A stretch of 64,000 nucleotides of DNA from Candidatus Latescibacterota bacterium (GTDB lineage Bacteria > Latescibacterota > UBA2968): positions 4,864,001-4,928,000 of the forward strand of contig OZ220741.1 of the NCBI GenBank assembly GCA_965116885.1, written 5' to 3'. Under the pieces are notes generated by a model. That model ran no database searches, was not told where the DNA came from, and was given only the letters and a program-made list of their open reading frames with translations. Shown piece by piece: positions 2,214 to 5,393 of this stretch (the first letter of the stretch is position 1; each line of letters begins with the position of its first letter). Both the position numbers and the translations under genes were made by a program.

Positions 2214-5200
2214 TTAATCGTCTATCGGCAACCCCACAAATAATCGACTGTATTCATCTGTCAATGGATCGCGCTCGCCCTTTTGCGCTGCGCGGGCAAA
2301 TACCACACCCGGCTTTTCCGACCTGCGCGCCCGCGCCAAAACGCCATATCCACCTGGCGCACTCTGCGTTTCCAGATCGCTCTGAATCGCCAGCATCTCC
2401 GCCAGCGCATTGGCCAAACCCCAGCGCGCACCAATCGCCCGCGCAAAAAGCTCCTCTGGCGTCAGCCCCTCTCGAAAACCGTGCTTCAAGGGCGTAAATC
2501 CACCCTGGTCATTCCGCGTCACGCCCTGGGGAGCCACATAAAGTCTAACCTGCTGCCAATTGGCACGCGCACCACATGCCACCAGAAGCGCGGGAATCCC
2601 GAGATCATCGTCGTCATATTCGCGAAACTGCGCCAACACAGCCGACACCTCATCGGGATAATCGCGCCAGACATCTGGGTCATCGCCCTCTGGCGGATCG
2701 GGCCAATCGCGCGACGAACCGATAAACGCACTCATCGACGCACCTGTCTTGCGCGTAGCATCAAAACCCCGATCCCACAATCGCGCAGATAGATCCAATG
2801 CCGCCTTCGAGCCATCGCGCGCCATTGCAGCCGCCATCCAGTCCATCACCTGATACTTATCGACAAATAACCCCTTTCGCTCAACCTCATCGCCGACAAT
2901 CTCCGCAATCTCCTGCAACCCCTCGTCCGTCATACTCATATACGCCAGGCCAAACAGCGCGTCGTGCATCGGGTGTACCTTCTCCCGTGCAATCAGCCCT
3001 GGATCCCGATTTAAGTGAGCTACTGCCGACAGATGTTCTTCAGCCGACCGCTGTCCCTCTTCAGTCACCGGCACAAAAATCGCCACCTGATCGCCATCAA
3101 AATCCATATTCATCATCTTGCAAATCGCCACACTCACGCGCACAGCATCGCCTTTCACGCGTACCGGACGACACGCCACAAAAGCCATTGGCGAAAACGC
3201 GGGATTGCGAAGCACCACAGTCCATAACTCAGCCATAGCCGCATCCAGCGCTTTCTCCGCTTTTTTTGACCGCCTATCCACTTCTTCAGTCCCCACCTCT
3301 CGCGCGGCAAACGGCCCAAACAACGTCCACGCCATCTCTTCGGGCACACCGACCTGATCGTATCGCAATTCAGGTGCAGGCACAGCCACTGAACGCCCGC
3401 TGAACAACGCGCGCGCCTGAAATTGCAAACGCGACAACTCGCAAAATGCGCGAACTCGCTCAGACAGCGTCTCGACCACACGATCCACCAATATATCTGG
3501 CGCGCCATTGGCAATCATCTCACTCAAGCGGTTGTTGGCCTCTCGCAATTCTCGGGGCACATCTCTCCCACTCACATGAGTCAACGAATGCCCCGGCAAC
3601 CACGGATGCGGAACCGAACGCGCAAGCGCGACATCCCCACTGCGCTTCAACGAAAACTCGATGCCGCGTTCATCCAGTTCAACAGCCACCCCACCTTTTG
3701 ACAAATGCCCAATTAGCTCATCAAACTGAGGGGAAGGCGCATTAGGAGTAACAGGTCCCGCAACGACGCGGTCAGATAGAGTATCGGCATCATCTCGATC
3801 TACCGCGCACGTATTGAACAAATCGCCAATCACCCCAAAAGCACCCGCTTCTCGCAACGCCAAAAACTCTGTCTCGCCCAACCCCTGGCTTCGCTGATCT
3901 AATTTTACACTTCCGGGAACGGCTTGGCGAAGATCTGCGGCGGTTTGACCTAACTCTCGATCTCGTTTCCCCAGCTTCACACCAGCCTGAATTTTATCCG
4001 CCGCCAAATGCACCGTGCGTCCCCAATACACCCACCCTACAGTGGTGCGACGCGGCAGCGTATCCCCATTTAGCGTCAACGCCTCCATACCGTCTTCTGC
4101 CAGCTCTAAACCTTTCAAACGAGCGCGTATCTCATCGTCTTTTGGCGCATTGAGCGCGGGAATAATAACCGGCTCCCCCTCGGCCTTTGCAATGCGCCCG
4201 ACCACAGCTTCGCGTACCTGTCCAATATTCAACCGCGACGGCAAACCACACACACTTACAATAAGCTCCACAGGCGTGCCATCCGGCAATTTGGGCATAT
4301 CCTCATCTCGCAAAATGCGCGACACCACCCCTTTAAAACCGTGTCGATTACTCAGCTTATCACCCGGCGCAACGCGATTGGGCAACATCATCCGGTTCGC
4401 CGCGGATTCGCTGATCACAACTGCGTCTTCATGTGTATCTCCATTCCACGCCATAAACGCGGTCAGCAAATTGTACCCCGTCCAGAAATGCGGATCGCGC
4501 GGTTCACACCCCGTTTGCACCAGCGCGGGTTCCGACTCCAAGACGGGTTTGAAACCCGTCTCTACATTGCCGTCATATTGCGCGTGATACGCGTGCCACG
4601 CGCCCTGTTCATCGCGCTGCATATCGGGACTCGGCGCGCCAATCCACTGCCGCATCATATTCACGCCCATCAAAACGCGATTGGTATCATTGTGTTCCAA
4701 AAACGGAACCACCGAAGCGCCTATCCCCAACCGCTTTTCAGGTGCATCGTCTTCAATCACCAGCTTGCCATCGCGAATAGTTGCCCCCTGAGCCACCTCT
4801 AAAATCCGCGCGAGATTCGGTCCCTCGGGCGTGCAATATGGACACACGCGCCCATCGTGCGACGGATGATAGCAATTCTCTATCCCCTCATCGGCCTCAC
4901 CGATAATTGGGATCAACGTCACCCGCCGCAAATGAACGTACATATCCTGCAAATTGGTCGCCTGCAAAGACTGTGATGTGGGTTCTTCCATAAAAAATGT
5001 GTGAATCCAATCCCCCAACGGCAACCATGTTTCAACGGCATCTCCCAGCATCTCTGGCATATTTTCCAACCGCTCGGCAATATAATCGCGCAATTGCTCC
5101 CCTACACACCGAATCTCAGCCCGCGCCAAATCCACATCAGTCGGCACGGGAACCACCGTTAAAAAAAAGCCATCTACCTTAAACCGTCCCCAATCGTCGG

Positions 5201-5393
5201 ACTGAGGGATATCTTTGTACACAACCTCTTGTCCCCCCTGAATCGCGAGATGCAATTCACAGGTATATTCATCCACCGACACCACCCGATACCCCGCCAG
5301 CGACACCCGATCTGTCAACAATTCGGGCAACTTCTTTTGAATAAACGCATCCCACGAAATTTTATGCCACGGCGCCTTAACTGAAAGACTCAT
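2214..5393 (-). CDS. Miniature single-chain RNA polymerase-like protein (RpoB core blocks fused to RpoC core blocks), ~1059 aa
   Basis: RpoB-like motifs: [107 protein letters not shown]. RpoC-like motifs: [58 protein letters not shown] at 5393 follows a GAGAGGAG RBS. Confidence 0.92.
4541..4565 (-). repeat. GTAG-type REP-like palindrome inside the coding sequence
   Basis: Minus strand GTAG-AGACGGGTTT-C-AAACCCGTCT, a perfect 10-bp stem. Confidence 0.55.

Follow-up and report, generated by a model that had tools for sequence, protein, structure and literature searches.

The window, by which we mean the whole analysed stretch of 64,000 nucleotides from a Candidatus Latescibacterota genome, carries a gene for a single-chain RNA polymerase core of about one third of the normal size. 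Conserved in this form beside the normal polymerase, this catalytic core appears to be a second and minimal transcription machine of a kind not described before. We found that the protein joins beta-like and beta-prime-like parts in one pruned chain with a polymerase fold, that its catalytic residues are conserved and its gene is under purifying selection, and that the gene is strictly linked to a sigma factor gene and a conserved promoter. The ECF-type sigma gene directly upstream and the conservation of the promoter across phyla are the new elements of this work. In our preferred reading, held with roughly even confidence, the locus is a self-contained and autoregulated module whose sigma factor and mini polymerase form a holoenzyme. 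With confidence a little short of that, we suggest that several bacterial phyla carry a second, autonomous transcription machine of two proteins, a core of ~1050 aa and a private ECF-like sigma factor, which has its own promoter and could sustain its own synthesis without the main polymerase. The features of the locus are collected in Table 1.

Table 1. Features of the mini polymerase locus. Positions are those of the window; residue numbers are counted on the 1069-aa form that starts at GTG 5423, in which the ATG is residue 11.
Feature	Position	Strand	Details
Single-chain mini RNA polymerase gene	2214..5393 (including stop codon)	minus	uninterrupted ORF, 1059 aa from ATG 5393
Beta-like half	3666..5393	minus	residues 11-586: partial beta1, fork, split double-psi barrel (flap excised), C-terminal anchor
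Beta-prime-like half	2217..3665	minus	residues 587-1069
Beta barrel motif [12 protein letters not shown]	4329..4364	minus	residues 354-365, two catalytic-site lysines
Catalytic loop NMDFDGD	3090..3110	minus	residues 772-778
Helical hairpin, clamp-helix equivalent	3444..3554	minus	residues 624-660; model helices 624-638 and 643-660; aligns to own RpoC 262-300
Bridge-helix equivalent	2364..2459	minus	residues 989-1020; long model helix; initial ~23 residues (989-1011) align with own RpoC as far as 769
Strong intrinsic-terminator-like hairpin	2157..2193	minus	16-pair stem and T tract, 21 nt past the polymerase stop; downstream boundary
381-aa ORF between sigma and polymerase	5466..6611	minus	sporadic insert, not part of the system
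Dedicated ECF-type sigma factor	6643..7236	minus	197 aa, start TTG 7236
Shine-Dalgarno GGAGG	7244..7248	minus	7 nt before the sigma start, read from the sequence
ECF-type promoter TGAACC-N14-GGTGTC	7259..7284	minus	-35 at 7284-7279, -10 at 7264-7259
Intrinsic-terminator-like hairpin of the preceding gene	7371..7398	minus	12-pair stem and T tract; upstream module boundary

The first-pass annotation of this DNA had described one unbroken ORF of ~1059 aa with RpoB motifs followed by RpoC motifs. Its coordinates, 2214-5393, stand, but it missed that the gene lies on the minus strand. There the frame is open over 2214..5423, whereas the plus-strand reading of this interval contains many stops. Most homologs begin at an ATG equivalent to residue 11. 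The order of the two halves was confirmed by the HMM mapping that the annotation had proposed, in which RpoB-type domains come first and RpoC-type domains after. Only three Pfam families were found, Rpb2_3 at residues 151-209 (E 2e-4), Rpb2_6 at 351-480 (E 8e-39) and Rpb1_2 at 738-796 (E 2e-15); the canonical set, Rpb2 domains 1, 2, 3, 45, 6 and 7 and Rpb1 domains 1-5, was not recovered in full. In the NCBIfam models, rpoB positions 1009-1185 correspond to residues 350-531, rpoC positions 328-501 to residues 671-835 and positions 97-184 of the cyanobacterial rpoC2 model to residues 919-1005. The scores stay under the equivalog cut-offs, with 170.1 versus 801 bits for TIGR02013 (RpoB) and 113 versus 963 bits for TIGR02386 (RpoC). 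PHROG matches were obtained to beta-like and beta-prime-like families (about 1200 positions). The motifs quoted in the first-pass annotation are present, namely the catalytic loop, HED (residues 331-333), PSR (395-397), the lysine-bearing beta barrel motif and the junction text (residues ~563-608).

The AF2 model of the mini polymerase is confident (pLDDT 92.8, pTM 0.92), and about 995 of its 1069 residues superpose on solved beta and beta-prime chains; superposition on core RNA polymerase had been suggested as a check. The beta-like half aligned to 6j9e_C (VIA alignment) with a Z score of 27.2 over 524 residues (rmsd 2.6, 30% identity), and the beta-prime-like half aligned to 6edt_D (VIA alignment) with a Z score of 18.1 over 471 residues (rmsd 3.0, 27% identity, chain range 8-1260). 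Rpb2 chains gave Z scores of about 30, and isolated DPBB domains matched residues about 674-800. With hhalign, the protein aligned to the RpoB of its own genome (E 5e-53) and to residues 262-769 of its own RpoC (E 2e-34), including the clamp-helix hairpin, switch 2 and the bridge helix. In this model the protein is predicted to carry two double-psi beta-barrels facing one active site, together with a bridge helix, switch 2 and a funnel. Profile alignment and structure superposition indicate that the lobe and the flap are excised from beta, and the N-terminal zinc region and the rudder segment from beta-prime. The stretch that separates the bridge helix from the C-terminal beta-prime block, trigger loop included, is also excised. 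The elements retained are both barrels, fork, switch 2, bridge helix and the C-terminal block of beta-prime. The precise trimming proposed earlier is borne out, as whole domains are cleanly removed from a core that can still be superposed.

Eight active-site residues are universal to two-barrel polymerases: the three Asp of DxDxD, an Arg and a Pro of the beta-prime barrel, and an Asp and two Lys of the beta barrel (PMC2919709). All eight are present in the mini polymerase of the window, where equivalence to the published positions was assigned by motif context and by alignment to its own RpoB and RpoC. Among 68 relatives, the beta-barrel residues D333, K356 and K364 are kept in 63, 63 and 64 members, and the beta-prime-barrel residues R739, P741, D774, D776 and D778 in 58, 61, 66, 66 and 65. 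No variation is seen at G354, D355, R360 and G362 of the beta barrel motif. At the ribose-sensing asparagine of the catalytic loop, 39/68 members have N and 19/68 have D. By its eight residues, the protein is predicted to be a two-barrel RNA polymerase catalytic core. The dN/dS of the gene is 0.125-0.196 (13 pairs, dS 0.24-1.42), and with the conserved catalytic residues this agrees with the earlier proposal of selection rather than decay. We consider the probability negligible that the ORF is an assembly chimera or a decaying remnant of rpoBC, a reading for which no support was found. This ORF recurs in single-contig genomes (4.5-14 Mb) and, within the phylum, in 65 of 168 genomes, it is free of internal stops and it is covered by contigs of other public runs. 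Purifying selection and the confident, compact predicted fold speak against this reading as well. A chimeric assembly or a lack of homologs of the same architecture would have told against the first-pass annotation, but the architecture recurs and other runs cover the locus.

The family consists of proteins of about 1000-1070 aa that are annotated only as "hypothetical". The same architecture was found at 1002-1068 aa in 113 of the best 120 database matches, in line with the search for relatives of ~1000-1100 aa that had been recommended. Outside the phylum of the window, members were detected in 3 of 401 sampled Chloroflexota genomes and in one Poribacteria record. In a search of genome contigs for related loci, 76 of the 80 loci listed are canonical rpoB and at least four are family members. 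The window's own genome (G000) carries canonical rpoB (1254 aa) and rpoC (1367 aa) at G000:4524752-4532659. Four short ORFs precede this pair and ORFs of 123, 155, 700 and 397 aa follow it, which we read by position and size as rplKAJL, rpsL, rpsG, fusA and tuf. In the shared blocks the mini polymerase is only 23-30% identical to its own RpoB and RpoC, and it is thus a separate paralog outside the rplKAJL-rpoBC context, as first proposed. The genes around it are ordinary chromosomal genes. A phage origin was rejected since BFVD holds no close single-chain match; its best matches are giant-virus and phage beta-like subunits with a TM of 0.3. Identity as a defence system was also rejected, as the polymerase has no PADLOC family match and marginal matches to CARF models fall on the HTH of the sigma factor only.

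Compared with canonical bacterial enzymes, the mini polymerase is 29-31% identical to beta, versus 19-26% to archaeal and eukaryotic chains, and 27% identical to M. tuberculosis beta-prime. It shares with RpoB and RpoC the catalytic motifs, fork, switch 2, clamp helices and bridge helix and, by gene linkage, the pairing with a sigma70-family factor. Unlike RpoB and RpoC, which are two chains with 2621 aa in the window's genome, it is one chain of about 1060 aa, and its gene lies outside the ribosomal-protein operon with no linked alpha or omega gene. The order of beta followed by beta-prime in one polypeptide is also that of the full-length fusions of Helicobacter and Wolbachia. However, those fusions carry all domains over about 2840-2890 positions, and the mini polymerase scores 166.1 versus 5372 bits (NF007172) and 170.5 versus 4632 bits (NF011417) against their models. 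Metagenomic full-length fusions of 1948-2522 aa contain 11 Pfam families, compared to three in the mini polymerase.

Both barrels in one chain and the lack of a trigger loop and of small subunits are also found in YonO, crAss-like phage gp66, P23-45 gp64/gp96 and QDE-1. These are phage or eukaryotic proteins, and none is known to use a sigma70-family factor. In contrast to the mini polymerase they appear extremely diverged: among the chains listed, which do not include YonO, Z scores to the mini polymerase model are 9.2 for QDE-1, 8.2 for gp96 and 6.6 for gp66, versus 27 and 18 for the bacterial subunits. The non-virion polymerases of the jumbo phages AR9 and phiKZ are minimal enzymes of the multisubunit type that lack alpha and omega and use a dedicated, sigma-like promoter-specificity protein. 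Their beta-like chains align to our model with Z scores of 25.4 and 21.4 over 284-310 residues, but they are phage enzymes split into four or five polypeptides, whereas the mini polymerase is a single chain encoded on a bacterial chromosome with a bona fide ECF-family sigma.

A further likeness by description is K2ORF6p of the yeast cytoplasmic linear plasmid pGKL2, given in PMC2919709 and PMC6211774 as a 982-aa Rpb2::Rpb1 fusion without trigger loop, lid and rudder. Judged from this description, the mini polymerase is likewise a pruned beta-then-beta-prime fusion of nearly equal size. According to PMC6211774, K2ORF6p is of eukaryotic-plasmid or viral origin, its partners are the separate small subunit K2ORF7p and a capping enzyme, and it relies on an upstream conserved sequence, without a sigma factor. 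The mini polymerase family, on the other hand, is bacterial-type, chromosomal and sigma-linked. In the wider loci that were compared, neighbours other than sigma vary; none is conserved, a K2ORF7p-like gene included. A fusion of this type is stated to be unknown in any other polymerase (PMC6211774, 2018). We found no description of a family such as ours in the full-text literature, nor had the first-pass annotation known of one, and the readable supplements of PMC10770324 gave 0 matches to it; published family alignments beyond those covered could list a fused bacterial family.

The protein encoded upstream of the polymerase matches Sigma70_r2 (E 1.8e-18) and r4_2 (E 9e-15) and reaches 122.5 bits against TIGR02937 (cut-off 42.9); none of the specific sigma equivalog models reaches its cut-off. 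Judged from its sequence, the partner is an ECF (group 4) sigma70-family factor with regions 2 and 4 only. Its start was placed at TTG 7236 because of the homolog alignment and the promoter position; a longer form from GTG 7263 would overlap the promoter. An ortholog adjoins the polymerase gene in 63 of the 168 phylum genomes. Of the 66 genomes with at least one of the two genes, 62 have both, the exceptions being three genomes with the polymerase alone and one with sigma alone, at a contig end. At all 30 loci with sigma in view (of 40 loci), it lies upstream on the same strand. The distance is at most 98 nt, or the genes overlap, in 26 of these, and inserts of 258-2285 nt separate them in four. 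The sigma stop and polymerase start codons often overlap, and the inter-domain linker of the sigma family is unusually conserved. One database protein of 1214 aa, on one 5-kb contig, combines sigma region 2 and the polymerase in one ORF; it may reflect a frameshift error, as its 90% cluster otherwise holds three unfused proteins (1037 aa) and one fragment of 277 aa. Apparent N-terminal extensions of the polymerase to 1174-1238 aa (L112, L113 and L119) were rejected, being ORF calls that run across the sigma gene. The sigma gene and its promoter do not appear in the first-pass annotation and are the most informative feature of the locus.

Of 28 loci, 23 have the promoter at equal spacing upstream of sigma, and the remaining five have close variants of it. 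Its conservation spans three phylum-level groups, Poribacteria and Caldilineaceae records included. In the holoenzyme reading, sigma and mini polymerase would both be made from this promoter, and the mini enzyme would be an active DNA-dependent RNA polymerase. In canonical enzymes, sigma region 2 docks on the beta-prime clamp helices. Region 2 of the partner could dock on the retained clamp-helix hairpin and so provide promoter specificity to the mini enzyme. The two proteins may then transcribe at least their own operon, and the resulting positive-feedback loop would be independent of the cell's main polymerase.

A less probable, though serious, explanation is that an ordinary ECF sigma uses the host core polymerase on its own operon and that the mini polymerase is a regulated, sigma-independent effector. 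By analogy with YonO and QDE-1, such an effector might copy from nicks, single-stranded DNA or RNA templates. In canonical holoenzymes the beta flap tip positions sigma region 4. The -35/-10 geometry found here matches canonical ECF holoenzymes. These use the flap, which is deleted in the mini enzyme, so that the host core enzyme fits at least as well as the reader of the promoter. The strict promoter motif occurs once in the 5.56-Mb genome (0-2 in shuffles), and three looser patterns gave 11, 4 and 32 matches versus 7-15, 5-9 and 31-45 in shuffles. Five other genomes contain 2-3 matches each versus 1-6 in controls. Among the nine extra matches in these genomes (1-2 each), seven are located within long ORFs, and none lies in front of a gene family that the genomes share. 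No target set was detected. As further promoter copies are not above chance, a holoenzyme would have no visible regulon, a point that also favours the host core. Furthermore, a single-chain two-barrel enzyme without a trigger loop can work alone, as described for YonO (PMC5467207), and the variable ribose-sensing position suggests that some members may handle substrates differently.

Other observations argue for a direct partnership and against reading by the host core alone. The only constant partner of this sigma is the polymerase, with stop and start codons that often overlap, which is typical of co-assembling proteins. ECF sigmas are usually paired with an anti-sigma factor or another sensor. 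The clamp-helix hairpin has been kept while most other peripheral elements were lost, and the sigma linker is conserved. A complex prediction of sigma 10-206 with polymerase 296-1069 scored 0.41, versus 0.00 for the best control; at least 22% of contacts are shared between runs, and the partner pLDDT is at least 65. Of 157 solved complexes, 116 attain the mark applied, as do 2 of 215 mismatches, and scores of at most 0.60 come from only 18 of the 157 solved complexes and from both passing mismatches. This model weakly supports binding of sigma to the mini polymerase, and the pass may reflect likeness, because sigma-polymerase complexes have already been solved.

It is also conceivable, but very improbable, that the mini protein acts mainly as a regulator that binds sigma, either an anti-sigma factor or a sigma chaperone that mimics the clamp, and that its polymerase activity is vestigial. 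Its gene lies at the usual place of an ECF anti-sigma gene and the sigma-docking hairpin is retained. However, a decoy would not need eight catalytic residues, a fork and a bridge helix, nor about 1000 residues held at a dN/dS <0.2 across phyla.

If the holoenzyme reading is correct, the module would be the smallest sigma-dependent RNA polymerase known and a natural experiment on the dispensability of flap, lobe, trigger loop, alpha and omega. An active holoenzyme would provide a minimal parts list for sigma-directed transcription, in a protein that can be aligned residue by residue to canonical RNA polymerase. The roles of these five elements, and the positioning of sigma region 4 without a flap, would become directly testable. 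It would also mean that private polymerases are maintained by cellular genomes too, beyond phages and plasmids, and, in practical terms, it would yield a compact and orthogonal expression system of two genes. If sigma merely switches the enzyme on, the question becomes which RNA sponge-associated and other bacteria make with a mini polymerase that lacks a trigger loop.

The 381-aa ORF between the two genes has no Pfam, NCBIfam or PADLOC match. It occupies this place in only 3 of the 21 genomes of the genus (G000, G079 and G080), and sigma abuts the polymerase in the other relatives with sigma in view (L006, L007, L008, L012 and L014); as a sporadic insert, it was rejected as a third component. 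The upstream ORFs of 315 aa and 344 aa (DksA/TraR zinc-finger) were rejected as components since they are unlinked in 20 wider loci, with one distant match 7.7 kb off. Contigs of four RNA libraries from three studies cover parts of the sigma and polymerase genes as well as the surrounding genes, with DNA carry-over possible. One genome (G071) has two copies of the polymerase and two of sigma. The hairpin of the gene preceding sigma aligns in 7 of 11 upstream regions, those of the window, L006, L007, L008, L012, L014 and, in part, L114.

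An ORF scan of the window identified a long ORF on the minus strand (2214..5423); the plus strand across the same interval carries many stops and no open frame. Translation from GTG yields a protein of 1069 aa, here called the mini polymerase, in which a pruned beta is fused to a pruned beta-prime, and residue numbers refer to this reading. The ATG at residue 11 (nt 5393), the start site of most homologs, gives 1059 aa. The first-pass annotation had reported a single-chain polymerase at 2214..5393. This ORF is real, with the end coordinate corresponding to the ATG, and all quoted motifs are present at the nucleotides named. 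Only the strand had to be corrected, since ORF and motifs lie on the minus strand. The host genome is a single contig of 5.56 Mb, of which positions 4864001-4928000 make up the window; it carries a canonical rpoB at 4528910-4532635 that scores over the family cut-off. In the ORF scan, rpoB (1254 aa) is followed by rpoC (1367 aa), with four short ORFs upstream and ORFs of 123, 155, 700 and 397 aa downstream. We read this region as rplKAJL-rpoBC-rpsLG-fusA-tuf, the flanking genes being named from position and size alone. The mini polymerase is 30% identical to RpoB of its own genome over residues 350-574 and 23% identical to its RpoC over residues 621-1006. As canonical rpoB and rpoC are present elsewhere in the same genome, the mini polymerase is a separate paralog and not the cell's main polymerase, as had been proposed.

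Features of the mini polymerase (residues) and of its predicted operon (window nucleotides)
Feature	Position	Strand	Counterpart or source	Remark
Rpb2 domain 3	residues 151-209		Pfam	
Rpb2 domain 6	residues 351-480		Pfam	E 8e-39
Rpb1 domain 2	residues 738-796		Pfam	E 2e-15
rpoB model	residues 350-531		NCBIfam	model positions 1009-1185
rpoC model	residues 671-835		NCBIfam	model positions 328-501
Cyanobacterial rpoC2 model	residues 919-1005		NCBIfam	start of model
Beta block	residues 95-216		beta 390-540	fork
Beta block	residues 217-262		beta about 600-640	
Beta block	residues 298-344		beta about 715-775	
Beta block	residues 349-~580		beta 1025-1254	
Beta-prime block	residues 622-660		beta-prime 262-300	clamp-helix coiled coil
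Beta-prime block	residues 668-800		beta-prime 338-480	switch 2 and barrel with catalytic loop
Beta-prime block	residues 800-1011		beta-prime 480-769	ends in bridge helix
Terminator-like hairpin	7398-7371	minus		of preceding gene
-35 element	7284-7279	minus		
-10 element	7264-7259	minus		
GGAGG	7248-7244	minus		
Sigma start TTG	7236	minus		matches homologs' start (MTPSD...)
16-pair hairpin and T tract	2193-2157	minus		after polymerase stop

To locate the retained parts, a profile of 68 family members (alignment A1) was aligned to RpoB and RpoC of the same genome. It matches RpoB in four blocks (E 5e-53) and RpoC with an E-value of 2e-34. About five residues stand in for the approximately 250 beta residues between the two barrel halves, the stretch known to form the flap, and of the first 390 beta residues only a small N-terminal domain is left. 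In the beta-prime part, the rudder-bearing stretch from the coiled coil to switch 2 is about 30 residues shorter. AlphaFold2 on A1 gave a model with a pLDDT of 92.8 and a pTM of 0.92, falling below a pLDDT of 50 at residues 1-9 and 493-506 only. In this predicted model, residues 11-583 superpose on a bacterial beta chain (6j9e_C) with 524 positions aligned, a Z of 27.2, an rmsd of 2.6 and 30% identity. Residues 586-1069 superpose on beta-prime of M. tuberculosis (6edt_D) with 471 positions aligned, a Z of 18.1, an rmsd of 3.0 and 27% identity. The latter match spans chain residues 8-1260, and therefore the last 60 residues represent the C-terminal beta-prime block. What separates this block from the bridge helix in canonical beta-prime, the trigger loop included, is absent from the mini polymerase as modelled. 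Solved beta1 domains in isolation (3mlq_A, Z 9.5; 4kbj_A, Z 8.4) match residues 14-155, and Foldseek matches, once realigned, reach a Z of about 30 against chains of Rpb2 and beta. In contrast, the known single-chain two-barrel enzymes QDE-1 (Z 9.2), P23-45 gp96 (Z 8.2) and crAss-like phage gp66 (Z 6.6) are far more distant from the model than the bacterial subunits. The sole low-confidence internal loop (493-506) lies within residues ~479-513 (window 3884-3988), and in one related contig of the public sequencing run X15, 103 nt within this interval are swapped for 31 other letters. Apparently, this is a hypervariable loop on the protein surface, located where the beta barrel ends.

The residues listed as universal to two-barrel polymerases in section 8 of PMC2919709 are kept in 58-66 of the 68 family members. 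G354, D355, R360, G362, E405, P607 and G986 are invariant in A1. The first residue of the catalytic loop (772) is N in 39 of the 68 members, D in 19, E in four and Q in three. To our knowledge, the equivalent position is an invariant N in canonical enzymes; its variation may have a bearing on sugar selectivity. Comparison of 13 orthologs with the gene of the window (Nei-Gojobori) gave dN/dS values of 0.125-0.196 at dS 0.24-1.42. Four pairs at greater distance were at or close to saturation, and 11 loci without a match to the N-terminal anchor pattern were left out. Both the dN/dS values and the retained active-site residues bear out the earlier claim of selection rather than decay. Beside this conservation, it seems very improbable that the protein is a decoy.

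A word-indexed protein search returned 576 proteins at E ≤1e-3 among 8000 scored. The best 120 of these 576, with identities from 98% down to 42%, comprise 113 proteins of 1002-1068 aa and seven fragments; every given name is 'hypothetical protein', and the MAGs are labelled Gemmatimonadota or Latescibacteria. An exhaustive search of 50%-identity representatives gave 368 proteins at E ≤1e-30. Among the 150 of these listed, 68 have 917-1101 aa and four are full-length fusions (1948-2522 aa; each has 11 Pfam families, and in two an alpha-subunit domain is present as well), the remainder being fragments. In the metagenomic proteins P0262 (1948 aa) and P0265 (2309 aa), alpha, beta and beta-prime seem to be joined in one ORF, either in reality or as gene-call artefacts. 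In the ESM Atlas, two clusters (73 and 135 members) have a length of about 1006-1026 aa and share the three Pfam families found here. Further single-chain clusters there, with Rpb2_6 and Rpb1_2, have 1221-1787 aa and no recorded taxa, and these may suggest a spectrum of partly pruned fused polymerases.

Of the 168 genomes in the phylum-level group of the window, the mini polymerase gene was found in 65, including every one of the 20 others from the same genus; it is missing from certain families of the group (e.g. 0/13 and 0/15 genomes). It is also present in three of 401 sampled Chloroflexota, and family members occur in Candidatus Latescibacterota, Candidatus Poribacteria and Caldilineaceae records. 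By its coordinates, one Latescibacterota record coincides with a genome of the phylum-level group, which we therefore assign to Latescibacterota despite the Gemmatimonadota label that the closest proteins received from their submitters. Public runs containing at least 0.27 of the sampled words of the stretch came from eight studies; those labelled by habitat are sponge metagenomes (four studies) and a coral-reef metagenome (one study), and no cultured organism is among these runs. With the gene recurring in this way, an artefact has a next to negligible probability.

The interpretation of the first-pass annotation is thus supported; a sigma factor, a promoter and operon boundaries are additions to it. 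The ORF at 6643-7263 (minus strand) contains sigma70 regions 2 and 4 and scores 122.5 bits on the ECF superfamily model (cut-off 42.9), reaching no specific equivalog cut-off in NCBIfam. The TTG coincides with the start of the homologs, and thus the sigma factor has 197 aa. At E ≤1e-30, an ortholog was found in 63 of the 168 genomes. Comparison of the genome lists showed both genes in 62 genomes, the polymerase only in three (G143, G146, G149) and sigma only in one (G156, at a contig end); G071 carries two copies of each. Forty loci were searched by tblastn, of which 10 had too little flank, and in all 30 with sigma in view it lies upstream of the polymerase gene and shares its strand. Measured from the stop codon of sigma to the polymerase residue at which the alignment begins, the distance ranges from -10 to +98 nt at 26 of these 30 loci and from 258 to 2285 nt at the other four. 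Besides sigma, no conserved neighbour was found across the loci compared. In the window, a 381-aa ORF without a family match (5466-6611, minus strand) separates the two genes. It is in this place in only three of 21 genomes of the genus, and a 54%-identical copy is located elsewhere in a genome without the mini polymerase; it is therefore an insertion. In other genomes of the genus, coordinates give sigma-to-polymerase gaps of about 1.9 kb. Beyond regions 2 and 4, a linker with a P-x-W-M/L-I/V-D/E motif is conserved among 21 sigma orthologs (41-96% identity to that of the window). The 1214-aa database protein P0272 combines sigma region 2 and a mini polymerase in a single ORF. We give this fusion little weight because it stands on one 5-kb contig and its 90% cluster otherwise consists of three unfused proteins and a 277-aa fragment. 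The sigma ortholog of locus L112 (genome G165) contains one in-frame TGA, as do those of G066, G098 and G140, which could reflect sequencing error, decay or recoding.

Alignment of the upstream regions revealed the motif TGAACC-N14-GGTGTC. The form TGAAC...G(G/T)TGT is present in 23 of 28 loci, many of which are close kin and not independent; the other five carry GGCGTC, CCGGTC or GGAGTC at unchanged spacing. The motif is usually 42-65 nt ahead of the sigma start (123-281 nt upstream in eight loci), also in Poribacteria and Caldilineaceae records. In the 5.56-Mb genome the strict motif occurs once, compared to 0-2 times in shuffles, and relaxed forms are not enriched. A scan of five other genomes showed no shared extra target.

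Our data show that this minimal polymerase core is well folded, conserved and under selection, and that genetic linkage ties it to a single sigma and a single promoter. We see about even chances that the two proteins form a holoenzyme initiating at its own promoter: sigma region 2 would dock on the retained clamp-helix hairpin, and the pair would then start transcription there. The one-to-one linkage with overlapping stop and start codons, the conserved sigma linker and the selective retention of the clamp-helix hairpin, where most peripheral elements are lost, favour the holoenzyme. Prediction of the sigma-polymerase complex gave a weak pass (0.41 versus 0.00 for the best control; contact agreement at least 22%, partner pLDDT at least 65). 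Of 157 solved pairs, 116 reach the mark for a pass, and of 215 mismatches, two do so; only 18 of the 157, but both of these mismatches, score 0.60 or below. The pass may be explained by likeness to solved holoenzymes. The flap positions sigma region 4. Against the holoenzyme, the flap is gone, yet the promoter geometry is standard ECF; also, no regulon is visible, and expression of the two genes is putative. The main alternative, which we regard as less likely, is that sigma recruits the host core enzyme to activate the operon, whose mini enzyme would afterwards act alone. A small share of the probability falls to none of the readings considered.

Full-text literature searches yielded no description of the mini polymerase family. 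Ruprich-Robert and Thuriaux 2010 (PMC2919709) report a 982-aa yeast-plasmid Rpb2::Rpb1 fusion and YonO-like proteins, with no sigma-linked bacterial family described in sections 5 and 8 (see also Sykora et al.). In passages of Koonin et al. 2020 (PMC7281927), single-protein two-barrel polymerases are given only for phages and fungal plasmids. The 23 families of Chaban et al. 2024 (PMC10770324) include 'derivatives with fused DPBB domains'. Rpb1, Rpb2, RpoB, Latescibacteria and Gemmatimonadetes are all absent from the main text of the ECF reclassification (PMC7826278). Two-barrel polymerases of the bacterial type, paired with a sigma70-family factor, are a known kind; the single-chain, minimal, chromosomal form is undescribed in the literature searched.

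Upstream of the module, two overlapping ORFs occupy 7430-9404 (minus strand). One encodes 315 aa without a match; the product of the other has 344 aa, which far exceeds the length of DksA, and carries a C4 zinc finger of the DksA/TraR type (residues 43-77). The longest listed contigs of the public runs X16, X17 and X18 (records 11, 21 and 29) fall in this interval. At 10453-12193 (minus strand), genes for an MjaI-family restriction endonuclease and an N6/N4 DNA methylase adjoin each other and form a type II restriction-modification pair; local GC falls to 0.44. Within a glycosyltransferase-rich stretch, 28895-34612 (plus strand) encodes a protein of 1905 aa that combines a peptidase domain of the gingipain type (C25) and its propeptide with CARDB and FlgD-Ig domains.
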